32,353 nucleotides of DNA from Kiritimatiellia bacterium (GCA_045642845.1 JAZUJQ010000267.1:1-32353), one strand, 5' to 3'; positions 4,278 through 31,600 are shown, numbered from the stretch's first letter. Numbers and translations: made by a program. Notes: generated from the sequence alone by a model not told the origin.

Positions 4278-4472
4278 TCCGGACGTACGATTTTGCAACA
4301 GATTCCAAAATTCACGGCATTCGGCAGTGTCAGGCCGACCCGACGGAACGCCACGCCCGCCTGAAAACGCTCCGCGAACAGTCCGAAACCGAATGAGTTT
4401 GAATTGTTAGATGAGAAATCCATAAATCCGCCGCCAAATCGTTGACAAATGTGCCGAGGCCTCCGAAAACGC

Positions 4473-6239: not shown

Positions 6240-6944
6240 TTAAGGTTGCTTGTAGAACTTCTTCACGACCGCAGGGCATCCGGCGACAAGAGCAAAATCT
6301 GGAGTGTCGCGGTTGACGACCGCACCGGCGGCAATCACGCACTTCCGACCCACGGTGACACCCGGAACGAGTATGGCACCAGCACAGACCCAGCATCCGT
6401 CCTTGACATTGATGTCCTTCACGCGGCGTTCGCCGCCGATGCACGGGCCGTCAGGGTCGATTACGTGCTCGTTTGTCTTGATTGAAACCATGTGGGCGAT
6501 TTTGCAATCGTCACCGATGGTGATTTTCGCCGTTCCAGTAGCGGAAATGTATGTGCGCGGCGCAACGCATCCTCCGTTTCCGATGCGGATTTCGGAGTGT
6601 TCGTAGGATTGCAGAAGAACTTCTTCCGAAATGCATTTGTCGTTTCCGATGACAACCGTGCCGCGGGCGCAGATCTGCGTTCCGAGTTTGATGAGCACCC
6701 TGTCACCGATATACAGTCCGCCCTCGGCGTACAGTTTCACGCCGGTGGCCACCGCGCAACCGTCGCCGAGTTTCAGGACTCCGTCGCCGAAAAAACAAGC
6801 GCCTTGAGAAATGCGGCATCCTTTTCCGATGTCGAATCCCGCCCACCGCAAAAAGCGGCTTCTTAATTCAAAGGCATTCCGCGTGAAAGGGCAATTCCGG
6901 ACGAACGAATGGTAGATCGCCAACTTGAAGCGTCTTGAAATCAT
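6240..6944 (-). CDS. Left-handed beta-helix (hexapeptide-repeat) O-acetyltransferase
   Basis: Many tandem [LIV]-G-x4 hexapeptide repeats (IGDRVLIKLGTQICARGTVVIGNDKCI; VKDGCWVCAGAILVPGVTVGRKCVIAAGAVV). The track start at 7016 is a TTG, so I prefer the ATG at 6944 (MISRRFKL...). Confidence 0.8.
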   Translation of the reverse strand: MISRRFKLAIYHSFVRNCPFTRNAFELRSRFLRWAGFDIGKGCRISQGACFFGDGVLKLGDGCAVATGVKLYAEGGLYIGDRVLIKLGTQICARGTVVIGNDKCISEEVLLQSYEHSEIRIGNGGCVAPRTYISATGTAKITIGDDCKIAHMVSIKTNEHVIDPDGPCIGGERRVKDINVKDGCWVCAGAILVPGVTVGRKCVIAAGAVVNRDTPDFALVAGCPAVVKKFYKQP

Positions 6945-7049
6945 GTGGCACACACTTTTTGTTTTTGCGCCGTCTTTGCGGCTATTTTCAATGTTCGGAC
7001 TATGCGGACGCGCCAAGCCGAAGTTTCGCGCGTCACGACGTCAACGTCC

Positions 7050-8390
7050 CTAATGCGCACGCAGTTCGGACGACGATATGCCGTTCGTCCGCGGCAGACG
7101 CACGACTTGTTTCCCGTGGTCGCGGCACCAGGCCTCGGCGCGTTTGAATCCGGCGTGAATCTGGTCTTCCCCAAGAACTAAAACATCGAAATCGATGCGC
7201 GTTATGGAGTCATCCACATCCGTGTACGGGACGACTTCATCGACATACCGCAGAGCACGGATCATTTTTACGCGGGTGTTCCAGTCGTACACAAGTCTGG
7301 TCTGCGGCTTGTACTTGGTCACCACGGCATCTTCCTGAACGGCGACGACGAGGGCTCCATCCGATCCGGCGATGTCTTTCGCCCGGCGAAAGAGTTCGTG
7401 ATGCCCGTAATGAAGAAGATCGTAAACGCCTACGGTCAGCACCCGTTTGGGACGCTTCATCTTCATTTCGTTCCAGATATCCACGCCGAGTTTGCGCATG
7501 TGTTTCCGATAAGGTTCGTCTGGATCCATCTCGGCTTCGTCATGTCCTGAAAGCCGCTTTTCGACGGGCGGAAGCTGCATGTAGTCTCCGTACTGAACAG
7601 TCAGAACGTCGTCGTATCCGATCGGCACGGGAAAACGGAATCCTTCAAAGTCCATGTCCATGGCCGAGTCGAACGATTCGGCTTTGAAGATATATTTGCG
7701 CCACGGGCTGAAATTGGAAACATTGCACCCCATGCATGCGGTGCGCGCACCGTTGAACTGCGACGCGAGCCGATGGACTTCCCTGTACGCATCTACCGGC
7801 GTGAGCCCGTAATGTTTGCGGAGACTGTCGCGCGCCTTGTCTGTCATGTCGTATCCCGGGATTTTCATGAAAGCCGAACACCAGACGTTCAGATCCAGAA
7901 CTTGATTGTAGAGTTCTTCGGCCTTTTCCGGTATTTGGTTGTCGATCGGCAGGATATCCAGAAAGATTCCGCACGTAAATCCCCAGAAGTGACGGTGCTT
8001 CTCGAAATACGTGGTGTTGGTATTGCGCAATTTCGGATAGGTGAAGGCGTACCCCCTGTCATTGTGCGGCATGGACAGAAAGTACGGCTCCCGGAATTCG
8101 CCGGCGCAACGTATGAATGCCTCGTAATCCTTTCGCGGCATGTAAATGTCTACATCGTCGTCCCAAGGCACGAACCCCTTGTGGCGGACCGCTCCGAGAA
8201 GCGTTCCGTATGTCAGAAAGTAGCGGAGACCGTGCTTTTTGCAGACGGCATCGACCTGCAGAAGCATGTCCAAAAGGATGGCCCAGATTTTTTTGCGCTT
8301 CTCGTCCACGAGAAAGTCGCAGCGAACTTCGGGTTTGAAGAACTCGCGGGGAAGAATTCCCTCGGCGATGATACGGTCGCACTCGGTCAT
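7050..8390 (-). CDS. Fusion protein: N-terminal LicD-family phosphotransferase plus C-terminal TagD-like (HxGH) cytidylyltransferase
   Basis: 446 aa. The LicD core YGTLLGAVRHKGFVPWDDDVDIYMPRKDYE lies in aa 1 to about 285 (about 7536-8390). The cytidylyltransferase domain runs from about aa 316 to the end (about 7053-7445), with TVGVYDLLHYGHHELFRRAK (HxGH) and the C-terminal RTNGISSSELR (RTxGIS-type motif of glycerol-3-phosphate cytidylyltransferases). One uninterrupted frame. Confidence 0.8.
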   Translation of the reverse strand: MTECDRIIAEGILPREFFKPEVRCDFLVDEKRKKIWAILLDMLLQVDAVCKKHGLRYFLTYGTLLGAVRHKGFVPWDDDVDIYMPRKDYEAFIRCAGEFREPYFLSMPHNDRGYAFTYPKLRNTNTTYFEKHRHFWGFTCGIFLDILPIDNQIPEKAEELYNQVLDLNVWCSAFMKIPGYDMTDKARDSLRKHYGLTPVDAYREVHRLASQFNGARTACMGCNVSNFSPWRKYIFKAESFDSAMDMDFEGFRFPVPIGYDDVLTVQYGDYMQLPPVEKRLSGHDEAEMDPDEPYRKHMRKLGVDIWNEMKMKRPKRVLTVGVYDLLHYGHHELFRRAKDIAGSDGALVVAVQEDAVVTKYKPQTRLVYDWNTRVKMIRALRYVDEVVPYTDVDDSITRIDFDVLVLGEDQIHAGFKRAEAWCRDHGKQVVRLPRTNGISSSELRAH

Positions 8391-8436
8391 TAGTGGTCAG
8401 TGGTTGGTGCAGGAAGTAAAGTCCGGATGGATTTTG

Positions 8437-9180
8437 CTATGTGGAAGCGATTGGCTTTTGTTGCAATTTCGCGCTGCTTTTGATGGTGGCACCCTTTTCA
8501 TGCCGTTCATTTTTATCCGGACACGACCCGCCGGCCGCCCTCCGCTTCATCAGCACTTCCACGATCTCAATGTCGTCGGGATGCGTGACCTTGAAAACGG
8601 GACCGCTGTGGAAAGCGTTGTAACCCTTGGCTTCGGTCGGAAGCTGGACCGCCGGATGTCCGTTGGGATGATCGGGATCGAAACAGTCGAGGAGTTCTCG
8701 GAAACGATAGGCGTCCGGAGCCTGGATCAGAAAATAGTCCTCGCGGTCGACTGTCCGGTCTTTGTACGAACCGAGGGCATCTGTGATTTTGATCGCCGTC
8801 TGCACCCAGTCGTATTCGTCCAAAAGTTCCATGTACCGGTCGATCGTCGCCGGTTCGGTGAGCGGACACGCCGCGTTGTTTTCTATTATTTTGGCGCAGT
8901 CCGGAAACTCGCGGGCAATGTAATCCAACGCGTTTTTCAACGACCAGTTGCGAGTTTTGCCGCCGCGCACCGTGCGGACGCCGTACTCGCGCGCGATGCG
9001 TCCGTTTTCGAACTCGTCGGAATTCAGCACGACGACAAAGTCGTCAATGCTCTTCGCGGCACGGAACAATTCGATCGAATACGCGATCATCTCCTTGCCG
9101 AGGATTTTGAAATACTGTTTCGGCATGTTCCCGCCGAAACGGGAGCCTATGCCGCCTGCGAGCACTATACCTATGTTCAT
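8437..9180 (-). CDS. IspD/TarI-family nucleotidyltransferase (alditol-phosphate cytidylyltransferase-like)
   Basis: 247 aa. The N-terminal GIVLAGGIGSRFGGNMPKQY is the signature P-loop of IspD / ribitol-5-phosphate cytidylyltransferase. ATG at 9180. Confidence 0.8.
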   Translation of the reverse strand: MNIGIVLAGGIGSRFGGNMPKQYFKILGKEMIAYSIELFRAAKSIDDFVVVLNSDEFENGRIAREYGVRTVRGGKTRNWSLKNALDYIAREFPDCAKIIENNAACPLTEPATIDRYMELLDEYDWVQTAIKITDALGSYKDRTVDREDYFLIQAPDAYRFRELLDCFDPDHPNGHPAVQLPTEAKGYNAFHSGPVFKVTHPDDIEIVEVLMKRRAAGGSCPDKNERHEKGATIKSSAKLQQKPIAST

Positions 9181-9195
9181 GCCGATTTCCCTACG

Positions 9196-10221
9196 TCAAG
9201 CCACCCTGTGCGGCGGTTGTGTTCCGGCCAAATACGCCGAAAGCGAGGCGATGACCATCTCTGTGCCGCACACCTGAACGTCGCCGGAAGAGCCGGCGAT
9301 GTGGGGCGTAACAATTAGATTCGGAGCGCCGACGAGACATGAATCCGGCGGAATTGGCTCTTTGCGAGTGACATCGATGGCCGCACCCGCGAGATGCCCG
9401 GAACTGAGCGAGTCGACAAGATCTTCCTCGACGACGAGTTCGCCGCGGGCCGAGTTGATGAAATACGCGCCGTTCTTCATTTTCGCGAAGACTTCCTTCG
9501 AAAAGAGTCCGCGCGTTTCGGCGGAGACGCCGCAGTGCACGGTGATGGCGTCTGACTCGGCGAGAAGCCTGTCCCACGACACCGGCTCGACGTAGTCCGG
9601 CTTGCCGTCGAACGTGCTGTACGGATCGTACGCCAGAATCCGCATGCCGAAAGCATGCGCCTTGGGCGCGAGCTGCCGGCCCACGTTTCCGAAGCCGACG
9701 ATGCCGAGTGTCATGGCGTTGAGACTGCGTCCGCGGAAACGTATGAACGGCGAATCGTTGTCCAGCCCCCAGACCGTGTCTTTGTATTCGCCGGGCTTTG
9801 TGCTGACTTCGCCAACCAGAAGTTTCGAATGGATCAGGTTGTTCGTGCGTGTAATGTTGCGCGTCATGTCGATGAGGTACCCCATCACCATGTCGGTTAC
9901 GGCGCCGGCGTTGCGTCCGGCGTTGTTGCAGACCATGATGCCTTTGGTCTTGGCCGCGTCAAGATCGATGACGGTCTTGACGCCGCCTCGACAGCACACG
10001 ATGAATTTCAGTTTCCCGGCGGCATCGAAAACGTCCTTCGAGACCGTATCGTATTCACAGATGAGGATGTCATAGTCCTTCACCTTTTTGACGAGTTCGG
10101 AGTGCGGCATCACGTCGTGATTTAGGATGTAGCCGTCGTAATCGAAATCGATTTTCCCGGCGAAAGCCGATTCAAGCCGTTCGCGGATGACTTCTGCAGT
10201 GACAAGAGATTTGAGTTTCAT
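9196..10221 (-). CDS. D-isomer-specific 2-hydroxyacid dehydrogenase family protein (phosphoglycerate/glycerate dehydrogenase-like)
   Basis: NAD-binding LGIVGFGNVGRQLAPKAHAFGMRILAYDP, and catalytic R/E/H context INSARGELVVEEDL ... VTPHIAGSS. I use the ATG at 10221 (MKLKSLVTAEV...). The track ORF extends to 10593 only as an Arg/Pro-rich read-through overlapping the upstream gene. Confidence 0.85.
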   Translation of the reverse strand: MKLKSLVTAEVIRERLESAFAGKIDFDYDGYILNHDVMPHSELVKKVKDYDILICEYDTVSKDVFDAAGKLKFIVCCRGGVKTVIDLDAAKTKGIMVCNNAGRNAGAVTDMVMGYLIDMTRNITRTNNLIHSKLLVGEVSTKPGEYKDTVWGLDNDSPFIRFRGRSLNAMTLGIVGFGNVGRQLAPKAHAFGMRILAYDPYSTFDGKPDYVEPVSWDRLLAESDAITVHCGVSAETRGLFSKEVFAKMKNGAYFINSARGELVVEEDLVDSLSSGHLAGAAIDVTRKEPIPPDSCLVGAPNLIVTPHIAGSSGDVQVCGTEMVIASLSAYLAGTQPPHRVA

Positions 10222-10241
10222 GATTGATTCTGCGGTTGCCG

Positions 10242-11318
10242 CTATTTGGACGGCATGAGGTTTTTGCGGTACTTTTCGCTTTCCCAGTTGGCTATGAACG
10301 CCTGCGCGGCGGCACCCATCGAGACGAGAGTGCGCCCGGTGCGGCGGACGGCGTCGGCGATGAAAACGATTGCCTCCAGAGTTTCGATGATCACGAGCGC
10401 CTTGGATTCCGGCATACGCAGGAGAATGCGGCCCGTTGCGGGGTCCGCCAGAGCCTGACCATCGCCCGGAATCCCTGAACCGAACGCGAACGAACCGATC
10501 AGGAACACCATCTGATCCGGGTAAAGCGGCTCTTTGAGGAAAAAGCTCTCGGTGTAATCGCCTGACGCTATGCGCGCGGACAAAGCCTCGCAATCCGCCT
10601 CAAACAGTCCCTCCTCCTTCCGTCGGACCGAAACCGCCGGAAAATCCGCTTCCGACACTCCGAACAGCTCGGCAATCCGGCGGTTGGCGTCGGCATGAAG
10701 CCGCAAACACTCGTCTGGATCGTCAGCATGGGCTATGACGCCGTGGTTTTTCATGATGATAACGGCGGGGCGGCGGCCCGTCTCCGCCTCGACGCGCGCG
10801 AGCTCATCACGGATTGCGAATGTGAGTCTGGCGCCGGGATCGACGTACCGGACGATGCCGACCGCGTAGTCGGCGTCGGCGAACGCTTCGCGCACGAGCG
10901 CGTCGCACTCCTCTGAACAGGCGGCGAGATTGGAGTAAACCGCATGACTGTGTGCGACGTATTTATCGAGCAAAGAATGGAATCCGGCTTCGACGGATGG
11001 ACGGCGCGGCGTGAGACCGTCAATGGAACGGATGCACGATTTGGCCTTTTCAGAACCCGACTTTTCCACATCTTCGAAGTCATCCGGAGACGAACCCAGA
11101 TAGAAATCTCGCAGAGCGCGGCCGTCCAGGACTGCATAAGCGTCTGACGGAGTGACGTCTTTCAGCCGGAATCCGGACGCCTTGATGGCCATGAGTCCGT
11201 CGGAAAACTTGGCCGACGTATTGCCTCCGCCGCCCTGGACGTAGTCCGGGCGAGCTCCGACCGCCTGCGAAATGCGAGTGAAGTCTTCGAGAATGGAAAA
11301 ATCTTGCAAAACGTTCAT
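10242..11318 (-). CDS. Class II aldolase/adducin-domain protein (long stand-alone form)
   Basis: GGGGNTSAK near the N-terminus, as in the aldolase halves of bifunctional rhamnulose-1-phosphate aldolase/dehydrogenases. Zn-ligand-like AHSHAVY (HxH) and MKNHGVIA (third His). Start ATG at 11318 (MNVLQDF...); the track start at 11375 is less likely. Confidence 0.7.
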   Translation of the reverse strand: MNVLQDFSILEDFTRISQAVGARPDYVQGGGGNTSAKFSDGLMAIKASGFRLKDVTPSDAYAVLDGRALRDFYLGSSPDDFEDVEKSGSEKAKSCIRSIDGLTPRRPSVEAGFHSLLDKYVAHSHAVYSNLAACSEECDALVREAFADADYAVGIVRYVDPGARLTFAIRDELARVEAETGRRPAVIIMKNHGVIAHADDPDECLRLHADANRRIAELFGVSEADFPAVSVRRKEEGLFEADCEALSARIASGDYTESFFLKEPLYPDQMVFLIGSFAFGSGIPGDGQALADPATGRILLRMPESKALVIIETLEAIVFIADAVRRTGRTLVSMGAAAQAFIANWESEKYRKNLMPSK

Positions 11319-11342
11319 AAAATGTGTCTCAACCGAGGCTGA

Positions 11343-11371
11343 AGTATAGCATAACGCATGGTCCATGACAA
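11343..11371 (-). promoter_or_regulatory. Candidate sigma70-type promoter for the minus-strand block 616-11318
   Basis: The minus strand reads TTGTCA-N17-TATACT with an extended-10 TG (aTGCTATACT), ending about 25 nt upstream of the ATG at 11318. Consensus match by eye only. Confidence 0.35.
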
Positions 11372-11420
11372 ACAACCGCGCGCCCGGACGTTCGATGTCG
11401 GATGTTTTGCCCCGTCTTAT

Positions 11421-12872: not shown

Positions 12873-14105
12873 ATGAATACCAAGAAACTCATGCTACTCG
12901 GCGGGTCTCGATACCTGTTCCCTGTCATCAAAAAAGCGCATGAACTGGGACTATACGTAATCACCTGCGATTATCTGCCCGACAACGACGCCCACAAGGT
13001 TTCTGACGAATACGTCAACGTCAGCATCGTCGAAAAAGAGAAGGTGCTGGAAGTCGCCATGGAAAAAGGAGTGTCCGGCATAATGTCGTTCGCCTGCGAC
13101 CCAGGTGTCGTCACCGCAGCCTATGTCGCCGAACGGATGGGGCTTCCATTCCAGTGTTCCTACGAGTCGACATGCATTCTTCAGGACAAGGGACGTTTCC
13201 GCGCGTTTCTTGCGGAGCACGGATTCAACTGCCCGCATGCCCGCAGTTACACGGATCCCGTGGCGCCCATAGCCGATGCGGATTTCTTCACATGGCCCGT
13301 CATCGTCAAACCCGTTGATTCCGCCGGAAGCAAGGGCGTCAGCAAAGTCGATTCGCCGGAAGGTCTTCCAGCGGCTGTGAAAACCGCTTTGGAGAGTTCC
13401 CGCAGCGGCTCGTTCATAGTCGAAGACTTTTTGACGTTTGAAAGCTACCACTCCAGCACCGACCCGTTCACGGTGGACGGTAAACTTTGCGCAGTCTCCT
13501 ATTCGGACCAGCTTTTCGACAAGGAGGCGGACAATCCGTACACACCGGCGTTCATAATCTGGCCCACGACCATGAAGCAGGAGCACCAGGACTATCTGAC
13601 GCGCGAAATACAGCGGCTCATGGACCTGCTGCACGTCGGCACCGGCATCTACAACATCGAGACCTGTGTCGGAGCGGGCGGCATTCCCTACATCATGGAG
13701 GTCTCCCCTCGCGGCGGCGGCTGCAAGATTGCGGAAATGCAGGAACTCGCCTTCGGCGGAAGCCTTATCGAAAACGAGATCCGCAAAGCCGTCGGTATGC
13801 CCCTTGTCCCCGTGGAAACGCACCCCATCCAAGGACATTGGTGCGAAATGGTGGTTCATGCGCGCCCCGGCATGCAGGGCGTGTTCGAGCGTATTGACAT
13901 CCGCGAGGACATCGGGAAGAGCAACGTACGCGTCATCGACATGTCAACGAAACCCGGCGACTACGTGTTTCCGTTCACGGGCGCCAACCGAGCACTCGGC
14001 GACATGTTTCTCCAATTCGCCACACGCGGTGAATTGAACGCCGCGATCGGGAACACGGCGGATTGGCTTGGCATCGTTCTGTCAGAGGAGAAAAGCAATG
14101 GATAG
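12873..14105 (+). CDS. ATP-grasp domain protein (carboxylate-amine ligase-like)
   Basis: 410 aa. WPVIVKPVDSAGSKGVSKV (ATP-binding Lys strand) and YIMEVSPRGGG (E-x-x-x-R-x-G-G-type C-terminal motif). The pre-ATP-grasp N-domain KLMLLGGSRYLFPVIKKAHELG is present. Confidence 0.8.
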   Translation: MNTKKLMLLGGSRYLFPVIKKAHELGLYVITCDYLPDNDAHKVSDEYVNVSIVEKEKVLEVAMEKGVSGIMSFACDPGVVTAAYVAERMGLPFQCSYESTCILQDKGRFRAFLAEHGFNCPHARSYTDPVAPIADADFFTWPVIVKPVDSAGSKGVSKVDSPEGLPAAVKTALESSRSGSFIVEDFLTFESYHSSTDPFTVDGKLCAVSYSDQLFDKEADNPYTPAFIIWPTTMKQEHQDYLTREIQRLMDLLHVGTGIYNIETCVGAGGIPYIMEVSPRGGGCKIAEMQELAFGGSLIENEIRKAVGMPLVPVETHPIQGHWCEMVVHARPGMQGVFERIDIREDIGKSNVRVIDMSTKPGDYVFPFTGANRALGDMFLQFATRGELNAAIGNTADWLGIVLSEEKSNG

Positions 14106-15030
14106 CGCGCCGTTCGCGACCGAGTGCGACAGGCTTGTCGCCGAAGGATCGCTCGATCCAGACTTCCTCAAGCCGGAAACACGCTGCGGTTTTCAGGTGG
14201 ACACGCGAAGAAAACGCCTTTGGGCCGTCCAACTGGACCTTCTGGCGCAATTGGATCGCTTCTGCAAACGTCACGGTCTCCGCTACTGCGCCATCGGAGG
14301 CACCATTCTCGGAGCGCTCCGCCACAGGGGATTCATACCATGGGACGACGACATCGACATCGTCATGCCGCGCGCGGACTACGAAAAACTTCCGTCTCTT
14401 GCCGAAGAATTCACCGGCCCTTATTTTCTTCAGACCCCGGGACGAGACCGCGACTACTTCATATCGCTGTCCAAACTGCGCAACAGCCGCACGGCGCAGG
14501 TCTCAATGACTCTGCGGCACTGCAGTTTCAATCAAGGCGCGCTGATCGACATCATTCCGCTGGATCTCTGGAACAGCCGAAAAGGACGTGAATCGTACGC
14601 ACGGATCAACGAATTGAACGTCGACAACGCCAATTTCATGCGACAGGGATTTCCTAATCCCGATGAAGAGATGCGCCGCCGCATCACGGCATGGTCCGGA
14701 CGCCGCCCCGAAGAAAACCTCGAGGAAATCAACCGCTTGGCCACGCAGTTCTCTGACGATCCCGAGGCGGACGTCGTGACCACGCCAGTCACCACTTTTT
14801 ATCCGTACGACAGGATAATGTTCCCGAAAGAATGCTTCGACTCATTCGTCGAAGTCCCGTTCGAAAACACCGTCATGGCCGTTCCGTCAGGCGCCGAACG
14901 CATACTTGAATTTCAGTTCGGGAACTGGCGTGAATTTCCGCCGCCCGGAAAAAGAGGCGCGTGGCACGGCAATGAAATTTTCGATGCAGATCGTCCGTAT
15001 GAAGCCGTTTTGAAGGATCTGAGGCGATGA
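14098..15030 (+). CDS. LicD-family phosphotransferase (stand-alone paralogue of the N-domain of 7050-8390)
   Basis: GGTILGALRHRGFIPWDDDIDIVMPRADYE. I prefer the ATG at 14098, which is preceded by GAGGAG and overlaps the ATP-grasp stop by 8 nt. The N-terminus ECDRLVAEGSLDPDFLKPETRCGF aligns with ECDRIIAEGILPREFFKPEVRCDF of the fusion protein. Confidence 0.8.
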   Translation: MDSAPFATECDRLVAEGSLDPDFLKPETRCGFQVDTRRKRLWAVQLDLLAQLDRFCKRHGLRYCAIGGTILGALRHRGFIPWDDDIDIVMPRADYEKLPSLAEEFTGPYFLQTPGRDRDYFISLSKLRNSRTAQVSMTLRHCSFNQGALIDIIPLDLWNSRKGRESYARINELNVDNANFMRQGFPNPDEEMRRRITAWSGRRPEENLEEINRLATQFSDDPEADVVTTPVTTFYPYDRIMFPKECFDSFVEVPFENTVMAVPSGAERILEFQFGNWREFPPPGKRGAWHGNEIFDADRPYEAVLKDLRR

Positions 15031-24380: not shown

Positions 24381-24409
24381 GTGAAAAGTCCGAACCGGAA
24401 TGCTATACT
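24381..24409 (+). promoter_or_regulatory. Candidate extended-10 promoter for the plus-strand block 24507-31600
   Basis: aTGCTATACT at 24400-24409 (TGn-TATACT) with a weak -35 (GTGAAA, 17-nt spacer), about 95 nt upstream of the ATG at 24507. The same 10-mer, aTGCTATACT, occurs in the candidate promoter at 11343-11352 on the minus strand. Confidence 0.3.
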
Positions 24410-24506
24410 CCGCGGCAGTCGCGGTCATTTCCGCCGAACCAGCACACGCCGCATCCACGACATACGGACCCGAAACTCCGTGCATGACACTCCGGACAGC
24501 AAAGAG

Positions 24507-25349
24507 ATGAGCAAGCCGTTGATCCTTCGTCCATCCGCCGGGCTCGCCAACCGGATGCGCGCGGTGGATTCATGCACGACGCTCTGCCGTCGCATAAACA
24601 GAGATATGGAAATAATCTGGTTTAAAGATCGTTCGTTCGGAGCCCGGTTCCACGACATCTTTGAACCGCTTGACATTCCGGGCACGACTCTCCGCGAGGC
24701 GCGGTTTTGGGAAATTCCCCTCTACGACGTCCCGATCGGTCGGCGAAACCTGCGCATTCCGCTGCTCTTCGAACGACTTCGTTTCGGGCATTCCCGCATG
24801 GTGTCACTTTGGGAAACCCAGCATTACCGCCGATCAGGAATCATTCCGGAAATCTTCCGGAAAACCGGCAAAACGGTCTACTTCGCCTGCGGACATCAGG
24901 TCGTTCCAACGGAACTACGCTATTCCATGTTCCGTCCGCGGCCCGACATCATGTCGGACATAGAAGCCATGTCATCTTCACTTCCGCCGGACGTCGCCGG
25001 AGTTCACGTTCGACGAGGCGATCATCGTCAGGCGATACGAGAATCGCCTTTGGAACTGTTTGAAAACGAAATCCGCCGTCTTCTGGATTCCGGCGAAGCG
25101 TCGGCCGTCTTTCTCGCTTCAGATTCCAATGAAGTCAAACGCAGACTCGTGTCGTCTTTCGGAAAACGCATCATAACACGTGACATTTCTCTTGAACGAA
25201 ACTCCGCCGAAGGAATCAGGGAAGCGGTCATCGATCTTTGGACTCTGTCACGATGCACACGCATCATCGGATCATCGGGTTCAACATTCGCGGAAACTGC
25301 CGCTTGGATGGGGCGTCGGCCATACAGTTTTCTGAAAAAGCCCGTTTGA
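24507..25349 (+). CDS. GT11-like / fucosyltransferase-superfamily glycosyltransferase (HxRxxD)
   Basis: About 280 aa from the ATG at 24507 (MSKPLILRPSAGLANRMRAV, compare the GT11 G-G-L-G-N-Q-M opening). AGVHVRRGDHR (the GT11 HVRRGD motif), AVFLASDSNEV and DLWTLSRCTRIIGSSGSTFAE. The track ORF start at 24381 adds an Arg-rich leader and is rejected. Confidence 0.55.
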   Translation: MSKPLILRPSAGLANRMRAVDSCTTLCRRINRDMEIIWFKDRSFGARFHDIFEPLDIPGTTLREARFWEIPLYDVPIGRRNLRIPLLFERLRFGHSRMVSLWETQHYRRSGIIPEIFRKTGKTVYFACGHQVVPTELRYSMFRPRPDIMSDIEAMSSSLPPDVAGVHVRRGDHRQAIRESPLELFENEIRRLLDSGEASAVFLASDSNEVKRRLVSSFGKRIITRDISLERNSAEGIREAVIDLWTLSRCTRIIGSSGSTFAETAAWMGRRPYSFLKKPV

Positions 25350-25388: not shown

Positions 25389-26702
25389 ATGAAGACCTGT
25401 CCGCCATCCATTTGCGTTTCCTGCGGTTGCTGCGTGTACAAAAGCGGCGACCCATCGGTGCGCATGACTCAAACGAAGAACGGTCCGCGACCGACCGATG
25501 CGCAGGGGCGGCCGATCCGGCTTGAATGCTCCGTGTGCCCCGGACGCGGAATCAATTACCCGGAACTGTACCGCGCGCACTACGGAAGCGCTCCGGATTC
25601 ATGGCTCACCGGCAAAGTCGTCAAAGTCCGCACAGGACACGCGACCGATGGTGAAATCCGTCTGGCCGGAGCTTCCGGCGGTGTTCTTACTCGCGTACTC
25701 ATGCATCTTCTTGAAACCAAGCGCGTTGACGGCGTCATTTTGGCGAAACAAGGCGTTCCTACGCCGCTGGAGGCATCGGCGGTCATTGCGACCACTCCGG
25801 ACGAGGTGCTTTCGGGAGCGGGATCGGTCTACATTCCGGTTCCTATGATTCCCGCGCTTGCAAAACTCGAAAACGGGAAGCGCTACGCGATGGTCTGCAC
25901 CCCGGAGCAATCCGCAGCGATCCGCGCACTACAGGCAGAAGGCGACGAACGCGCCAGGCGGATCTCCTACGTCGTCGGACCGTACACCGGCACCGCGCTC
26001 ACGCCGCAGGCGCTTTCATACTATCTCAAAAGCAACCGCATCCCGGAAGACGACCCAGTCACAAGCGTGAAGTGGCGAGCCGGGAAATGGCCGGGCTATC
26101 TGGAAATCCGCACGTTGGGCGGCCGCGTGCTGCAGTCGCCGAAAGTCTATTACAACTTTCTCATTCCGTTCTTCGTCACTACGACGAGTCTTGTCAGCAT
26201 GGATTTTTGCAACGAATTCGCGGACCTCGCAGTTGGCGACGCCTGGTCTCCGAAATTCGAAAACGCCGGCAAGGGCGGAGTTTCTGTCGTGGTCACTCGC
26301 ACGACCGAGATGGAGTCCGTCCTTGCGGAAATGCAGTCGAAAGGGCTTCTCGACCTCACGGAGGAGGATCCGCTCAAGGCGGGCGACATGCACGGGCATA
26401 TGCTTGACTTCAAAAAGCGCGGCGGCCATCTTCGCTGCCGCATGCGGCGCACATTCGGGTTTCCGTCGCCGGAATACGGGTACCGTCCGACGCATATCGC
26501 ATTTTCACGCCGTTGCGTGGAACTTGTCACCAGCACCGTGTTCGCCGCCTGCCGCACCGCTCCGGCACGTTGGCTCGTGTGCAAAATTCCGGAACGGATT
26601 CTCGGACCGTTGTTCAACAAAGCGCGTCTCTCCTGGAAAGCCATGAGCCGCCCGACGAAGCGCAAAGGACTCACTAAATATGACATCGTCGAACTTCCTT
26701 AA
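25389..26702 (+). CDS. Coenzyme F420 hydrogenase/dehydrogenase beta-subunit-like (FrhB/FdhB-like) Fe-S flavoprotein
   Basis: 437 aa. N-terminal Cys clusters CVSCGCCVYKS and CSVCPGRG, then GASGGVLTRVLMHLLETKRVDGVILA, which is typical of the FrhB_FdhB N-domain. This family recurs in bacterial polysaccharide loci. Confidence 0.7.
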   Translation: MKTCPPSICVSCGCCVYKSGDPSVRMTQTKNGPRPTDAQGRPIRLECSVCPGRGINYPELYRAHYGSAPDSWLTGKVVKVRTGHATDGEIRLAGASGGVLTRVLMHLLETKRVDGVILAKQGVPTPLEASAVIATTPDEVLSGAGSVYIPVPMIPALAKLENGKRYAMVCTPEQSAAIRALQAEGDERARRISYVVGPYTGTALTPQALSYYLKSNRIPEDDPVTSVKWRAGKWPGYLEIRTLGGRVLQSPKVYYNFLIPFFVTTTSLVSMDFCNEFADLAVGDAWSPKFENAGKGGVSVVVTRTTEMESVLAEMQSKGLLDLTEEDPLKAGDMHGHMLDFKKRGGHLRCRMRRTFGFPSPEYGYRPTHIAFSRRCVELVTSTVFAACRTAPARWLVCKIPERILGPLFNKARLSWKAMSRPTKRKGLTKYDIVELP

Positions 26703-28281
26703 GGAAACGCTTGCAGACGCGCTTCCGCGCATTCTCACGCAGTGTTGCCGCGACAAAGGCTGTCCCGCCTACGGATGCTTCGACCGCAACTGGTGGCACT
26801 ACCGCATCAGAGACTTCGCTTCAAGCATTCTCCAACAAGGCGGTTACACGGTGTTGCGCGCCTCCGAAGCGCTTCCAGGCATGTTGCCGACTGATTTCGC
26901 CCTTGACATAGCCGCAGGATCGGCCGTTTTCTGGAACAACCGCGCCACGCGTCACGGCGCATTCGAAGAATACTACCCTTGGGAGCAGGGCTATCCGCCG
27001 GTCGCTTTCAGCACGCTGGCCGTCGCCAAGCTCGTCGCAGAGGGAATCGCCGACCGCGAGGCCGTGCGTCCAGGCATGAGAATCGCCTCGAAACAGCTTC
27101 TCTCACGCTTCGAGGCAAAGGCCACCAACCAGCAGGTCGCCGGGCTCGCCGCGCTTGCCTGGATTAGAAAAAGCTATCCCGAACTTGTTCCGGACGGGGA
27201 ATTCGTCACGCAAAAAGCGAAGACGCTCGCCCGTCAAAGCGACGAAGGTTGGTTCTGGGAGTACGACGGTCCCGACGCCGGATATCTCTCCGTCACGATG
27301 GATTGTCTTTGGGACCTCTATGACGCCACGGGCGACGCAGACTTCCGTGCATCCTGCGACAAGGCGTTGGGTTTTCTCGACATCGTCATCGGACAGCCCG
27401 GTTGCGGACTTGGAATGCTCAACGCCCGCAACACCGACTACGTGGTTCCATACGGGATCGCCCGTTACCTCAACGACGGCACGGATGACCAAAAGCGTCA
27501 GGCGGCCCGGCTCATCGACATCCTCTACGGCCACGCGAACGAAGCATTTCATTTTCTCCGTTCGGTCGACGACCGCTACTGGTGCCACTACATCGGCCAC
27601 TCCGTCGCCCGTGGCATCATCGAGCTGAACAAAGCGGCAGGACGATACGCACCCGCAGGCGAAGCCTGTCGGCCGGTCGGATGCAGTCTTCCGGAATGCG
27701 GCTATGAGTTCAGACCTCTTTCCAACGGGGTGCTTCTGACAATGGCGATGAACAAGGGCGGATGTCTGCGGCTGACGAATGACGGGAAAATTCTGGCCAT
27801 GGACTTCGGCTGGATCGTGAATGACGGGAAAAAACGCCATGTGACGCATTGGTGGTCGCTCGACTGGAAGTCGGCGAAGGACAAAAAAATTTCCGTCGAC
27901 GGATCGCTCGCCCCGCACAAAGAGGTCGAATCCACGCCATTCATGCATATTGGACTGCGCCTCGTCAGCTTTGTCTTCGGAAAATCAATCATCGGGCTTC
28001 TCAAAAACGTGATGATTTTCAAAAAAAAGCGCAGTCCGTACCGATTCAAGCGCACGGTGGAAATTGAAGACGGAGCGGTTCGAGTCATCGATGAGATCCG
28101 CGGCATCCCGCAAAACGCGAAAGTCACGCCAGCCCCGCGCGCGTCAAAACGCCACGTCGCCAGTGCGGACAGCTATCATCCGGAAGACACCGCTCTTGTT
28201 TCCGACGCCGTTGAGATGGAACGAACCGAAAAAATCGGCGACGGGACATTCAGAGCCGAGACCGTCTATCGAATCCGATAG
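26680..28281 (+). CDS. Hypothetical 533-aa protein, no family recognised; N-terminal CCx4Cx4C cluster
   Basis: A long ORF in the gene-dense plus block, with its ATG at 26680 overlapping the FrhB-like stop by 23 nt. The codon and amino-acid composition look protein-like, not the Arg/Pro-rich pattern of shadow ORFs. Cys cluster TQCCRDKGCPAYGCFDRNWWHY. The first ~330 aa look helix-rich to me and the C-terminal ~180 aa strand-rich, with one hydrophobic stretch FMHIGLRLVSFVFGKSIIGLLKNVMIF. Confidence 0.75.
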   Translation: MTSSNFLKETLADALPRILTQCCRDKGCPAYGCFDRNWWHYRIRDFASSILQQGGYTVLRASEALPGMLPTDFALDIAAGSAVFWNNRATRHGAFEEYYPWEQGYPPVAFSTLAVAKLVAEGIADREAVRPGMRIASKQLLSRFEAKATNQQVAGLAALAWIRKSYPELVPDGEFVTQKAKTLARQSDEGWFWEYDGPDAGYLSVTMDCLWDLYDATGDADFRASCDKALGFLDIVIGQPGCGLGMLNARNTDYVVPYGIARYLNDGTDDQKRQAARLIDILYGHANEAFHFLRSVDDRYWCHYIGHSVARGIIELNKAAGRYAPAGEACRPVGCSLPECGYEFRPLSNGVLLTMAMNKGGCLRLTNDGKILAMDFGWIVNDGKKRHVTHWWSLDWKSAKDKKISVDGSLAPHKEVESTPFMHIGLRLVSFVFGKSIIGLLKNVMIFKKKRSPYRFKRTVEIEDGAVRVIDEIRGIPQNAKVTPAPRASKRHVASADSYHPEDTALVSDAVEMERTEKIGDGTFRAETVYRIR

Positions 28282-28305
28282 CCGAAGCCCGCATGCAAAT
28301 TCGCA

Positions 28306-28737
28306 ATGAAGCCGTCAGCTCTTTTAAAAAAACTTTTTCTGTTTCTCGTCGTCGGACTTCCCGCATTCGCGGTGGCCTTTCCGCTGAACTTTCTGCTCGT
28401 CGACAAGGCGGGATGGCCGAAGTGGCTCGCCTACGCCGTGGTTCTTCTCGTTCAGGTCAACATCAACTTTCCGCTTTGCCGCAAATTCGTATTCGATCCG
28501 GACCCGGGAAAATCCGTCTGGAAACAGTACGGTGAATTCATGGCGGCGGTCGCCGCCTTCCGCGGATTGGACTGGCTGATTTACACGTTTTGCGTGGAGA
28601 CTCTGCGTTTTCCACTCGTCATTTTCGGAAATGACTGCTATTATCTCGCCTACCAGCTCGCCAATGTCGTGATATTCTCGCTCGCGAAGTTCGTTTTCTG
28701 CAAACGAGCCATCGAGGGAAGCCGTTCCCAACCATGA
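28306..28737 (+). CDS. gtrA: GtrA-family small membrane protein
   Basis: 143 aa with about four hydrophobic helices. KKLFLFLVVGLPAFAVAFPLNFLLV ... VNINFPLCRKFVF fits the GtrA-like family pattern. Sits immediately upstream of a GtrB-like GT2. Confidence 0.75.
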   Translation: MKPSALLKKLFLFLVVGLPAFAVAFPLNFLLVDKAGWPKWLAYAVVLLVQVNINFPLCRKFVFDPDPGKSVWKQYGEFMAAVAAFRGLDWLIYTFCVETLRFPLVIFGNDCYYLAYQLANVVIFSLAKFVFCKRAIEGSRSQP

Positions 28738-29699
28738 AACTCATCATCCAGATTCCATGTCTCAACGAGGAGCAAACCCTCGCGCAAACAGTAGCTGACC
28801 TGCCGCGTCACATCGACGGCATCGACGAAATCGAATTCATGGTGGTGGACGACGGATCCACCGACGGCACGGTCGATGTCGCGCGCCGTTGCGGAGTCCA
28901 TCACATCGTAAGCCACGGCAGCAACCGCGGTCTTGCCACGGCATTCTCCACGGGACGCGATTACGCACTTGCCCACGAAGCCGACATTCTCGTCAACACC
29001 GACGCGGACAATCAATATTACGGGCCCGACATAGCAAAGCTGGTCGTGCCGATATTGGAACACCGTGCGGAAATCGTCGTCGGCTGCCGTCCCATCTTGG
29101 AACACAAAGAATTCAGCCCCGTAAAAAAAATATTGCAATTGGCCGGCAGTTGGGCGCTCCGGAAAATTTCACAGACAACGGTACGCGATGCTCCCAGCGG
29201 CTTCCGCGCCTTCTCGCGCACCGCGCTTCAAAGGATTTTCATCCATTCGCGGTTCTCCTACTGCATGGAAACGCTTATTCAAGCTGGAGTGACCGGAATG
29301 CGCGTTGCATCGGTTGACGTGCGGGTCAACCCCAAAACCCGCGATTCGAGACTCTTCAAAAGCATTCCGCAGTACCTCCGCAAGACCGGCGGAACAATGC
29401 TTCACATGTTCCTGCTTTACCGTCCCGGGACGTTCTTTTCGCTGTTGTCGGTCCCGTTCTATCTAGCGGCGACTTTTCTCGGCATTCGATTTCTATGGCT
29501 CGTTTACGCGATGAAAATCCCTGGGCGGACCTATCTGCCGTCGCTGATCCTTCTGGCCATTTGCGCATTCGCCGGATTTTTATGCTCGCTTTTGGCCATT
29601 CTCGGCACGCTATTCCGCGCGCAACGCCGCTTGGCGGAAGAGGAAATATACCTCCTCCGCGCGTTTGCTGACAGAGATATGTCAACGAAACCATGCTGA
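28734..29699 (+). CDS. gtrB: Polyprenyl-phosphate glycosyltransferase (GT2, GtrB/DPM1-like) with C-terminal TM helices
   Basis: IIQIPCLNEEQTL, MVVDDGSTDGT and NTDADNQY (DxD), followed by two hydrophobic C-terminal helices (FFSLLSVPFYLAATFLGIRFLWLV; LPSLILLAICAFAGFLCSLLAILG). ATGA overlap with GtrA. Confidence 0.85.
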   Translation: MKLIIQIPCLNEEQTLAQTVADLPRHIDGIDEIEFMVVDDGSTDGTVDVARRCGVHHIVSHGSNRGLATAFSTGRDYALAHEADILVNTDADNQYYGPDIAKLVVPILEHRAEIVVGCRPILEHKEFSPVKKILQLAGSWALRKISQTTVRDAPSGFRAFSRTALQRIFIHSRFSYCMETLIQAGVTGMRVASVDVRVNPKTRDSRLFKSIPQYLRKTGGTMLHMFLLYRPGTFFSLLSVPFYLAATFLGIRFLWLVYAMKIPGRTYLPSLILLAICAFAGFLCSLLAILGTLFRAQRRLAEEEIYLLRAFADRDMSTKPC

Positions 29700-31600
29700 C
29701 GTTCTGCGCAACGCTCTGGATTGACTCAGTCGTCCTAATCCTGATTTCAACATGCGTCTGCAGCTGTTTTTCGCAAATGGCCGCAGGCGCTTGGATAGGG
29801 TTCGCCGGTGCAGTTGCAATTTCAACGTGGAAGATCATCCGTGCATGGCGGAATCATCTGCAAATTGAACATCCGCATGGCCCTTGCGAATGGGGTCTCA
29901 CATTCCTTGTCGCGCTTGTATTCGTTTCAATGTGCGTCGGTCCCCACTGCTTTCTCGATTCCTACAGCTACCGCTTTCCGCAAATGCTGTTCTGGATCCA
30001 AGAGGGACATCCTTGGACAGTACCGAACGTTGACATGCGCATCAACCAGATGCCGCATGTGTGGCCGATGCTCGCTTCCGCGTTTTATCTTCCGTTCGGC
30101 GAACGCGGAGTCGCGCTGCCGAACTTCATCTCGTATCTTTTACTCGCCACGCTCTTCCGCAACTGGGCGCTGGAGGCAACATCCGACGGCCGTCGCGCAG
30201 GAGCTCTGGCACTTGTCTTCGCATCGGCTCCGGTCTTTCTAATGGGTGCGTCGACAAACGACAATGTCGTCACGTGCACTGCCTTTCTCGCATTGTCGTT
30301 GCATTTCGCGATTCTGGTGTCGAAATCTCCCGATCGCATCTCGCCGTCGCAAAAAAGACTTATGGAATACAGCGCCCTGTCATTCGCGCTTTGCTGCGGC
30401 ATCAAACCGCAATATGCGGTTCTTGCGCCGATCTGGGCCGCATGGTTTTTCTTTGCTCCGGTCCGTCCGTTCCGCGTTTTCTTTTCAGAACGCAACACAG
30501 GAACAGACGGACGCCGATCTCCGGCCATTTTACGCACGACCGTTCTGTTTTTCGTTCTCGTGCTTTGCTCGCCTGCGCCCACAATGGCATGGAACCAGAT
30601 GCGGTGCGGCAGCTGCAAAAATCCGATTTTGACGGACTGTCCGGAAACATTTTCGACGCCTGGGCCACCCGAGCCCATCGGACGATCTTTCATGTCTTTG
30701 GGATTGCAACTTTTCGATTCTCCGATAAATCCGTTCTTCGCAAAAAACAACGAGTGGATTCAGACGTCCGATTCCGGTCTTGCACACGCATTCCGGAAAT
30801 ACGGAATTCGATTCCGACCTCTTCAAATCGCGGAAGGCGCATCATTTGGATTTTTCGTTTCGTTTGCGTTTTTCATCGGACTTTCATCGACGCTGCTTCG
30901 AAAAAAACAGACATCGACTGACAACGGCACGTTTTACGTTCCACACAAGCTACTCGCTCTCGCCGCACTTGTCTGCCTTTCACTCGCGATATGCGTCACG
31001 CGAGCCGGCACGCTCGGCCGGTCTTTCATCGGTTTTTTCGTTCTTCTCGTTCCATCGGCATTCGCAGGATTTCCGCATCGAATTCCAACGAGGTTTCTCT
31101 CGGCATACGCCTTCATCTGTTTTCTGTCGGGAGTTTTCGTGGTCGTCACCGACAGCGCACGCCCGCTCTGGCCTGTGGAATCGGTGGTGCAACGGGTCAA
31201 TTCGCCGACACTTCGAAAGCAACTGCACGACTACGCGCATTACAGCCGTCGCCAACTCGGCGCAAAGAAGCTGCTGGAGTCTTTGCCGACAGACGAACGC
31301 ACGCTTGGCGTCATCGTCGCCGCCGGGGAACCGATCGCGGAATGCTGGCTTGGCCGCAAGACGCCTACAAAAGTGATTCCGCACGCAACCAACGTCACCT
31401 CGGAACGTCTTGACGCCGAAAGCATTCGCTACCTTGTCGTAAAAACAAAAAACGGCGAATTCATCGACCCGGCTACCGGAATGCTGCGGGATGATTTTCT
31501 CTGTCAAATCGGTTGTGAAATCGTCGCGCGGAACTCGTACACGTCCTATATGTTCATCGGTGACGAACCATGGTTTCTCGTCCGCAGAAACACACATTGA
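29693..31600 (+). CDS. Large polytopic membrane protein, GT-C-like (GtrC-type polyprenyl-phosphate-sugar-dependent glycosyltransferase candidate)
   Basis: 635 aa. The N-terminal ~500 aa contain many TM helices, with an Asp-containing first loop (FLDSYSYRFPQMLFWIQEGHPW). The C-terminal soluble domain is about 130 aa. The start overlaps the GtrB-like stop by 7 nt (ATGCTGA). The assignment rests on architecture and context, not on a diagnostic motif. Confidence 0.5.
   Translation: MLTFCATLWIDSVVLILISTCVCSCFSQMAAGAWIGFAGAVAISTWKIIRAWRNHLQIEHPHGPCEWGLTFLVALVFVSMCVGPHCFLDSYSYRFPQMLFWIQEGHPWTVPNVDMRINQMPHVWPMLASAFYLPFGERGVALPNFISYLLLATLFRNWALEATSDGRRAGALALVFASAPVFLMGASTNDNVVTCTAFLALSLHFAILVSKSPDRISPSQKRLMEYSALSFALCCGIKPQYAVLAPIWAAWFFFAPVRPFRVFFSERNTGTDGRRSPAILRTTVLFFVLVLCSPAPTMAWNQMRCGSCKNPILTDCPETFSTPGPPEPIGRSFMSLGLQLFDSPINPFFAKNNEWIQTSDSGLAHAFRKYGIRFRPLQIAEGASFGFFVSFAFFIGLSSTLLRKKQTSTDNGTFYVPHKLLALAALVCLSLAICVTRAGTLGRSFIGFFVLLVPSAFAGFPHRIPTRFLSAYAFICFLSGVFVVVTDSARPLWPVESVVQRVNSPTLRKQLHDYAHYSRRQLGAKKLLESLPTDERTLGVIVAAGEPIAECWLGRKTPTKVIPHATNVTSERLDAESIRYLVVKTKNGEFIDPATGMLRDDFLCQIGCEIVARNSYTSYMFIGDEPWFLVRRNTH

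Follow-up and report, generated by a model that had tools for sequence, protein, structure and literature searches.

A FrhB-like flavoprotein and a lyase-fold protein of an undescribed family share a five-gene glycosylation cassette in a Kiritimatiellia bacterium

Introduction

What does an FrhB-like flavoprotein do in a bacterial polysaccharide locus in which no pyruvyl transferase is found? The question is raised by a stretch of 32,353 nucleotides from a Kiritimatiellia bacterium (GCA_045642845.1, JAZUJQ010000267.1:1-32353), referred to below as the window, in which the gene of a 437-amino-acid FrhB-like protein overlaps the gene of a 533-amino-acid protein, here called X533. Genes misnamed 'coenzyme F420 hydrogenase beta subunit' are scattered in bacterial glycan loci whose hosts are not known to make F420. 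A survey of 79 Klebsiella capsule loci counted two 'nitroreductase' genes and one 'coenzyme F420 hydrogenase' gene, with functions unassigned (PMC4616057).

The first-pass annotation of the window, made from the sequence alone, had read the two proteins as a possible two-component redox tailoring enzyme in which a Cys cluster of X533 accepts or donates electrons. Our analysis retains the first part of this reading, a conserved functional pair, and gives up the second, as the Cys cluster is not conserved. The pair points to an undescribed sugar-tailoring step in at least 10 bacterial phyla.

Gene pair and five-gene cassette

The FrhB-like gene ends 23 nt inside the X533 gene on the same strand (Table 1), as had been described before, and the peptides quoted in that description (CVSCGCC, CSVCPG, GASGGVLTRVLMHLLETKRVDG, QCCRDKGCPAYGC and EGWFWEYDGPDAGYLSVTMDCLWDLYDATGD) were all found in the open reading frames (ORFs). 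A Shine-Dalgarno-like AAAGGA is located about 10 nt 5' of the X533 ATG, within the 3' end of the FrhB-like gene. Tight spacing of the two genes was also seen elsewhere, for example as a 4-nt overlap in locus L091.

Both genes belong to a self-contained five-gene cassette at 25389-31600, which encodes the FrhB-like protein, X533, a GtrA-family protein, a GT2 polyprenyl-phosphate sugar synthase and a glycosyltransferase of the GT-C fold, in this order and with spacings of -23, +24, -4 and -7 nt. The cassette is a Gtr/Arn-type three-component periplasmic glycosylation system with two extra cytoplasmic proteins, a setting that the first-pass annotation had missed. In a genome of 7.4 Mb, the five genes, in the order PMT_2, FrhB, X533, GT2 and GtrA, stand alone, outside any polysaccharide locus. 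L091, Sphingosinicella sp. YJ22 and Alteriqipengyuania abyssalis NZ-12B are candidate sources of a stand-alone cassette.

The nearest NCBIfam models of the GT2 protein are AglJ, PpgS and dolichyl-P-hexose transferase, the first two with scores below their cutoffs. Residues 269-302 of the protein are hydrophobic and weakly match LapA_dom. The 635-amino-acid protein of the window has no Pfam match, and some of its homologues carry PF13231 (PMT_2). With its AlphaFold2 model, Foldseek returned as best matches ArnT (5f15, E 6.8e-6), ALG12, STT3, DPY19, ALG9, Pmt4, AftB and EmbA, all of which are GT-C enzymes.

A pyruvyl transferase partner had been reported as absent from the window, and this is in line with our scans. 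PS_pyruv_trans (PF04230) was detected neither among the non-shadow ORFs of at least 150 amino acids nor when the unassigned ORFs were rescanned to E 10, and a hidden pyruvyl transferase was rejected on the basis of these negative profile scans. The constant companion of the pair is the GtrA/GT2/GT-C cassette rather than a pyruvyl transferase.

Table 1 Coordinates of the cassette features in the window and of the nitroreductase genes in related loci
Feature	Position	Strand	Basis
FrhB-like [4Fe-4S] flavoprotein, 437 amino acids, reductase partner	25389..26702	+	PF04422 and PF04432 above gathering score
N-terminal ferredoxin-like Cys motif (C9, C12, C15 ... C50-P), probable single [4Fe-4S] site	25413..25541	+	alignment of 30 orthologues
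Overlap of FrhB-like stop and X533 start, 23 nt	26680..26702	+	ORF listing
X533, 533 amino acids, undescribed family, lyase-like two-domain architecture	26680..28281	+	AlphaFold2 model, Foldseek
X533 (alpha/alpha)6 toroid, residues ~1-320	26680..27639	+	twelve helices up to residue 319 (AlphaFold2)
X533 CCx4Cx4C cluster, residues 22-33, unconserved	26743..26778	+	homologue alignments
X533 C-terminal beta-sandwich, residues ~335-533	27682..28281	+	DSSP of model
X533 hydrophobic helical hairpin, residues 420-447, then KKKR	27937..28020	+	helices 420-433 and 436-445
GtrA-family small membrane protein, putative lipid-linked-sugar flippase	28306..28737	+	PF04138, E 4.6e-12, 46.6 bits against 26.1
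GT2 polyprenyl-phosphate sugar synthase, GtrB/ArnC/DPMS-like, C-terminal hydrophobic tail	28734..29699	+	PF00535
GT-C fold glycosyltransferase, 635 amino acids, polytopic	29693..31600	+	AlphaFold2 pLDDT 91.6, Foldseek
Nitroreductase genes	L022:6815-7543, L031:8287-9015, L066:9319-9960		PF00881
Nitroreductase genes, continued	L081:9273-9956, L030:1757-2422, also L088:9607-10245		PF00881

Distribution of the pair and exchange of the reductase

The scan covered one genome per species, and at least 576 species encode a relative of X533. At least 715 relatives were found among 90%-identity clusters, every one of them named 'hypothetical'. With clustering at 50% identity and a threshold of E ≤ 1e-3, the family numbers 1188 cluster representatives. 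Relatives occur in Kiritimatiellia, Verrucomicrobiota, Lentisphaerae, Planctomycetota, Bacteroidota, Alpha- and Betaproteobacteria, Desulfobacterota, Cyanobacteria, Cloacimonadota, Acidobacteriota, Chloroflexota and Spirochaetia. We kept 80 species-level loci from at least 10 phyla, 78 of which have enough flanking DNA to be judged.

The FrhB-like gene lies directly upstream of the X533 homologue in 60 of the 80 loci, directly downstream in six and within 10 kb in a further two. It is near X533 in 68 of the 78 judgeable loci, with direct adjacency in 66, and this adjacency is found across many phyla. Its frequency is far above chance, and the association suspected by the first-pass annotation stands up to comparison. 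GT2 orthologues were seen in 62 of the 80 loci, and GtrA adjoins the X533 homologue in at least 35. A protein of the LPG_synthase_TM family, which we take to be flippase-like, is found in 23. By a crude count, a large polytopic membrane protein is encoded nearby in at least 50 loci, in some cases with PMT_2.

The pairing persists around X533 homologues of only 22-28% identity. Gene orders observed at this distance are GT2, FrhB, X533, LPG_synthase_TM; further LPG_synthase_TM, GT2, X533, methyltransferase, FrhB, PMT_2, GtrA; and GT2, GtrA, an unassigned 533-amino-acid protein, X533, nitroreductase.

Twelve of the 80 loci have no FrhB-like gene, two of these being on truncated contigs. In the FrhB-less loci L022, L030, L031, L066 and L081, a flavoprotein of the nitroreductase family (PF00881, E 1e-22 to 1e-26) with a length of 213-242 amino acids is encoded between GT2 and X533. 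At the C-terminus, the nitroreductases beside X533 are extended by a basic stretch (...YY..P.R.WLR....YEKKF). Such a gene is missing from all FrhB-containing loci, and the two were never observed together. A flavin reductase of either type is near X533 in 73 of the 78 judgeable loci, directly adjacent in 71.

FrhB-like and nitroreductase-type flavin reductases are interchangeable in the cassette, which had also escaped the first-pass annotation. Since two unrelated flavoproteins occupy one slot, the slot would need a two-electron flavin reduction and not F420 chemistry or a specific iron-sulphur (Fe-S) relay. The Klebsiella capsule survey (PMC4616057) hints that the same interchange may occur in other glycan loci, e.g. 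beside pyruvyl transferases.

The FrhB-like reductase

Both Pfam domains of the FrhB/FdhB flavoproteins were detected in the 437-amino-acid protein, PF04422 with E 3.6e-20 (72.3 bits, cutoff 22) and PF04432 with E 8.9e-20 (71.5 bits, cutoff 23.3). Its best match among PDB sequences is 8riu_B (E 2.3e-18), with the N-terminal Cys region aligned, and HCAR (5dqr) is a detectable relative. Comparison of 30 orthologues yielded a conservation of at least 90% for C9, C12 and C15 and an invariant C50, the remaining Cys residues not being conserved. The GASGG flavin region is strongly conserved in the same set. Weak precomputed Fer4 matches were noted in a distant orthologue. Judged from these sequences, the Fe-S motif of the pair (CxxCxxC...CP) is predicted to sit in the FrhB-like protein only.

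The protein shares both Pfam domains, the GASGG region and an N-terminal Cys motif like that of 8riu_B with the described FrhB/FdhB flavoproteins (FrhB 3zfs, 8riu_B/8rja_E, HCAR 5dqr). It differs from them in its replaceability by a nitroreductase, in scores far under the NCBIfam equivalog cutoffs (53 against 331 bits for FrhB, 17.5 against 475 bits for FpoF) and in a conserved C-terminal extension of about 110 residues (MHGHMLDFKKRGG ... IPE..IGPVFN.LRL.WK..SKPTKRKGL), the tail of which is basic and amphipathic. The hosts are a further difference: members of the Planctomycetes-Verrucomicrobia-Chlamydiae (PVC) group, Bacteroidota, Sphingomonadales and cyanobacteria are not known as F420 producers. 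No hydrogenase, Fdh or Fpo partner genes were found in the ORF scans of the window.

HCAR and BciB belong to the same family, and we take both to be ferredoxin-dependent reductases from organisms without F420; BciB reduces a vinyl group. By its sequence relationships, the FrhB-like protein of the cassette probably does not involve F420 either, and 'F420 hydrogenase' is for this reason a misnomer here.

Fold and conserved residues of X533

X533 was described earlier as a protein of unrecognised family, and indeed it matches nothing in Pfam, NCBIfam or the PDB sequences, even at E 10. The family profile gave a single repeat-level match of 70 residues to GH76. Full-length members of the family are nearly all 500-560 amino acids long. 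The AlphaFold2 model, calculated from a 52-sequence alignment, has a predicted local distance difference test score (pLDDT) of 89.1 and a predicted template modelling score (pTM) of 0.92. It comprises a helical toroid, then a beta-sandwich with one hydrophobic hairpin, in agreement with the helical body, the strand-rich tail and the one hydrophobic segment recognised beforehand. Residues 3-19 form an amphipathic helix that belongs to the fold in the model, and neither a signal peptide nor a hydrophobic leader is evident at the N-terminus.

Comparison of the model with the PDB using Foldseek corroborates the impression of a lyase- or epimerase-type architecture. The top 11 matches are lyases with a toroid and a beta-sandwich (E 1.4e-6 to 5.7e-4, probability 1.00). 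The best ones are polysaccharide lyase (PL) family 33 BtPL33HA (E 1.4e-6), PL15 Atu3025, GAGase VII, PL8 chondroitin AC lyase and heparinase II, and both domains of X533 are covered only by the lyases and by matches of GH127 type. Lower down follow GH88, GH127, the terpene cyclase MstE, LanCL, epimerases of the AGE type and GH76; apart from the GH127 type, these are restricted to the toroid.

X533 shares the (alpha/alpha) toroid followed by an antiparallel beta-sandwich with PL33 BtPL33HA (8r71), PL15 Atu3025 (3a0o), PL8 (2wda) and PL21 heparinase II (2fut), but the likeness of the folds is moderate to remote, with template modelling (TM) scores of 0.39-0.49 and about 11% identity. Unlike these lyases, X533 lacks a Pfam lyase match and a signal peptide, is found in a biosynthetic instead of a degradative context and has the hydrophobic hairpin in addition.

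Searches with lyase hidden Markov models (HMMs), among them Lyase_8, Hepar_II_III and Alginate_lyase, gave no sequence membership to E 10. Some family members have short matches to Pec_lyase, LANC_like and GH88 at the level of the toroid repeat. The Pec_lyase matches, present in 16 of 44 members, extend over 40-50 residues; as they span just one hairpin repeat, membership of that family was rejected. A precomputed assignment of distant homologues (L083, L084, L087) to PF25840 (Ulvan_lyase_N) was not reproduced by hmmscan at E ≤ 0.1 and was not used. Because the similarity is remote and the matches of family members cover single hairpins only, we regard X533 as a protein of lyase-like fold without a described family.

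In the wide family, aligned down to 22% identity, D35, W39, E102, N150, E194, D199, Y202 and R250 are invariant, and R24, R36, Y41, D45, E97, Q151, E189, W191, Y254, D297, R299, Y300, K359, R427, R458 and D471 are nearly so. When sequence positions are compared with the helices of the model, the conserved residues of the toroid fall mostly in the loops between hairpins, the usual active-site location in toroid enzymes. N150, Y202, Y254 and R250 are conserved candidates for a lyase-type Tyr/His plus Asn/Arg site.

The hydrophobic hairpin has a mean Eisenberg hydrophobicity of 0.52-0.55, and its residues P420, H423, R427, G434 and L441 are conserved. It may serve as a membrane-surface anchor or as an interface with a partner.

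Proposed function and alternatives

The cassette resembles known three-component systems (GtrA/GtrB/GtrC; ArnC/ArnD/ArnEF/ArnT; the undecaprenyl-phosphate-pentofuranose systems, PMC11127046) in that a GT2 synthase, a GtrA-family protein and a GT-C enzyme are encoded together, and in that additional enzymes of the cytoplasm, in the manner of ArnD, DprE1/E2 and ORF13, could act on the lipid-linked sugar prior to its flipping. It differs in the auxiliary proteins, which are here the lyase-fold X533 and an Fe-S flavoprotein or nitroreductase, types unreported for such systems in the literature searched. The auxiliary enzymes acting on undecaprenyl-phosphate sugars in these systems have been described as epimerases only, and the authors know of no other examples (PMC11127046). 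Full-text literature searches did not return a description of the FrhB-X533 pair or of the cassette.

In our view, the pair is likely to tailor the sugar that the three-component system carries. For the chemistry, elimination followed by reduction of a C=C bond is a tentative proposal drawn by analogy: both flavoprotein families include reducers of activated C=C bonds, and X533 has a lyase fold. Toroid lyases abstract the proton alpha to the uronate carboxylate and then eliminate the C4 substituent. X533, being non-redox and having the fold of uronate-eliminating enzymes, is the natural candidate for making the C=C bond.

In the proposed sequence of events, GT2 would charge undecaprenyl phosphate with a sugar, which may be acidic. 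X533 would then catalyse a lyase- or dehydratase-type elimination on the lipid-linked sugar at the cytoplasmic surface of the membrane, yielding a conjugated C=C bond, e.g. in a 4,5-unsaturated uronate. Reduction of this bond by the flavoprotein would follow, with ferredoxin as electron donor for the FrhB-like type and NAD(P)H for the nitroreductase type, and the net outcome would be a deoxygenated or saturated sugar, to be flipped by GtrA and transferred by the GT-C enzyme to the glycan built by the rest of the locus. The X533 hairpin, like the basic and amphipathic tails found in either type of reductase, agrees weakly with action at the membrane surface. That X533 represents a new family of cytoplasmic membrane-surface 'eliminases' of lyase fold, acting on undecaprenyl-phosphate-linked sugar with interchangeable flavin reductases, is conceivable at this stage rather than probable; the overall explanation, in which X533 and the reductase tailor the sugar before flipping, by elimination and then reduction, is in our judgement evenly balanced between right and wrong.

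A non-redox eliminating enzyme coupled to a flavin reductase of a conjugated C=C bond has functional analogues in the E1/E3 pair (CDP-4-keto-6-deoxyglucose 3-dehydrase and its Fe-S flavoprotein reductase), MurB and FbiB's C-terminal domain. The nitroreductase domain of FbiB reduces the enolpyruvyl group, an enol-ether acrylate, of dehydro-F420-0 (PMC6450877). E1/E3 and MurB are not related to our proteins in sequence or fold, E1 being an aminotransferase-fold enzyme with pyridoxamine phosphate and [2Fe-2S] and MurB being of the vanillyl-alcohol oxidase (VAO) type, and both act on nucleotide-linked substrates.

Several observations weigh against the proposal. The likeness of X533 to the lyases is remote, as stated above, and no invariant His is found across the wide family alignment. 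Membrane association of X533 would follow from a single feature, the moderately hydrophobic hairpin. Among the window ORFs scanned, no uronate-forming gene was identified. FrhB-X533 fusions occur neither among the 120 closest FrhB-like proteins nor among the 150 best X533 representatives. Finally, in about 6-10% of the loci (cyanobacterial L065 and L072, L017 and L020 from Lentisphaerae, and a Phyllobacterium chromid) X533 has GT2, GT-C and a flippase-like protein as companions and lacks an adjacent reductase, from which it follows that the reductase is not always needed or is encoded elsewhere.

The pair could also act one step earlier, on the nucleotide-activated sugar, with GT2 then loading an unusual donor, as ArnA and ArnB precede ArnC. 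The gene context fits this equally well, neither protein has a true transmembrane segment and the many invariant Arg and Lys residues of X533 could bind a nucleotide diphosphate. We nevertheless regard it as rather unlikely, given that the X533 hairpin with its KKKR and the basic tail of the FrhB-like protein suggest action at the membrane surface, and that the auxiliary epimerases of known three-component systems are proposed to act after transfer to undecaprenyl phosphate (PMC11127046).

Somewhat harder to reconcile with the data is a reading of X533 as an epimerase or isomerase, with the flavoprotein performing a separate oxidation or reduction in a DprE1/DprE2-like inversion on the lipid-linked sugar; we hold it to be unlikely. 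Related folds are used by heparosan C5-epimerase and the AGE family, Foldseek also returns toroids of the AGE, glucose-2-epimerase and cellobiose-epimerase type, one family member has a weak C5-epim_C match, and DprE1/E2 and ORF13 are precedents for the epimerisation of polyprenyl-phosphate sugars. The epimerase matches are, however, confined to the toroid with E values of about 1e-2, compared to about 1e-6 for the two-domain lyases, and the paired His residues of AGE-type enzymes are not conserved in the X533 family. To our knowledge, members of the FrhB-like and nitroreductase families reduce nitro groups or activated C=C bonds and are not alcohol oxidases, which disfavours an alcohol-oxidation role of the flavoprotein.

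A true polysaccharide lyase that trims or clears polymer, like AlgL in alginate operons, with the reductase an incidental neighbour, would agree with the lyase-like fold and with the Wzx/Wzy-type polysaccharide locus of the window. It is very improbable in view of the missing signal peptide (the N-terminus of X533 is a helix of the fold), the cytoplasmic flavoprotein near X533 in almost all judgeable loci, the occurrence of the cassette outside polysaccharide loci and the lack of a match to any PL-family HMM. Just as improbable is modification of the lipid carrier itself, in which the toroid, whose fold resembles terpene cyclases and prenyltransferases, would accommodate the polyprenyl chain and an isoprene unit would be saturated by the flavoprotein, giving a dolichol-like carrier. 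This idea draws on weak matches to the terpene cyclase MstE (Foldseek) and to SQHop_cyclase and Prenyltrans (Pfam), and on the vinyl-group reductase BciB as a relative of FrhB. The terpene-type matches are weaker than the lyase matches and cover the toroid only, and the invariant positions are taken by polar, charged or aromatic residues, as is typical of a carbohydrate site and not of a hydrophobic prenyl pocket.

The least probable of all is the two-subunit redox enzyme of the first-pass annotation, with an Fe-S relay bound by the CCx4Cx4C motif of X533: this X533 does have the four Cys residues and the genes overlap and co-occur strongly, but of the cluster C23 alone is well conserved in close homologues, no Cys is kept family-wide and an Fe-S chain that could be extended is missing in nitroreductase-type loci. 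C22 is retained in 9 of 52 homologues, C23 in 50, C28 in 2 and C33 in 37, and the wider family alignment contains no conserved Cys. This lack of conservation means that X533 is not an Fe-S partner, and the cluster appears to be a local peculiarity of this sequence and not an Fe-S site. Based on the model, X533 is best described as a cytoplasmic protein without Fe-S.

Further genes of the window and of related loci

According to the ORF scans, the window is a large polysaccharide locus of the Wzx/Wzy type, in which GT2, GT4 and GT61 transferases are encoded. Its further genes encode two LicD proteins, an IspD-like protein, a cytidylyltransferase, DegT, ATP-grasp and GNAT proteins and Wzx. The regions 6240-11375 (-) and 14068-15030 (+) contain the two LicD-family proteins, one of them fused to a cytidylyltransferase, together with the IspD-like cytidylyltransferase, a class II aldolase and a 2-hydroxyacid dehydrogenase. 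Decoration of the main glycan with polyol phosphate or a similar phosphodiester is suggested by these genes. The 465-amino-acid ORF of the 2-hydroxyacid dehydrogenase (9196-10593, -) overlaps the upstream class II aldolase ORF (10242-11375, -) by about 350 nt. Its Pfam domains begin only at residue ~158, and the TTG listed as its start probably lies too far upstream.

Directly 5' of the FrhB-like gene, a 322-amino-acid ORF (24381-25349, +) was observed. It has no Pfam match and contains GLANRM... and HVRRGDH motifs, which we take to recall fucosyltransferases of the GT11/GT23 type. Its true start is possibly an internal Met (MSKPLIL...), and the ORF is not conserved beside X533 in other loci.

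Some of the related loci have additional genes. B12-binding radical SAM genes flank distant X533 homologues in L087 (276-1715 and 2675-4117) and L081 (11593-13104), and in L086 a Methyltransf_21 gene is located between X533 and FrhB. In some lineages, C- or O-methylation may further modify the tailored sugar. Proteins with an N-terminal sequence resembling amidotransferases of the asparagine-synthase type (AsnB-like) are encoded near the cassettes of L066 (12944-14830) and L081 (13112-14998), and L086 has a UDP-glucose/ManNAc dehydrogenase gene (3781-5076) near its cassette. Taken together, the AsnB-like and dehydrogenase neighbours give a weak hint of uronic acid chemistry.

In the plasmid collection PLSDB, one distant X533 homologue was found. 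L090, from the cultured rhizobial Phyllobacterium sp. A18/5-2 (NZ_CP104967.1, 64176-83558, on a replicon of 1.59 Mb), encodes an X533 homologue of 26% identity along with GT2, an LPG_synthase_TM-like and a GT-C-like protein. It has no adjacent reductase, and the region is without annotated genes in the PLSDB table.

Implications

The cassette is a conserved, portable five-gene unit that gives the FrhB-like gene a fixed lyase-fold partner. The swap of reductases narrows the chemistry to a flavin-dependent reduction linked with a non-redox enzyme of toroid fold, which is testable in vitro. If the proposal is true, tailoring by elimination and reduction would be a second kind of auxiliary modification, beyond epimerases, in three-component periplasmic glycosylation. 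It would also constitute a new route to deoxy or saturated sugars at the level of the lipid carrier, and FrhB-like proteins from the glycan loci of bacteria would for the first time have a biochemical role. The cassette implies that many uncultured Kiritimatiellia, Verrucomicrobiota and Bacteroidales, as well as cultured sphingomonads and cyanobacteria, carry an undescribed sugar modification on their surfaces.

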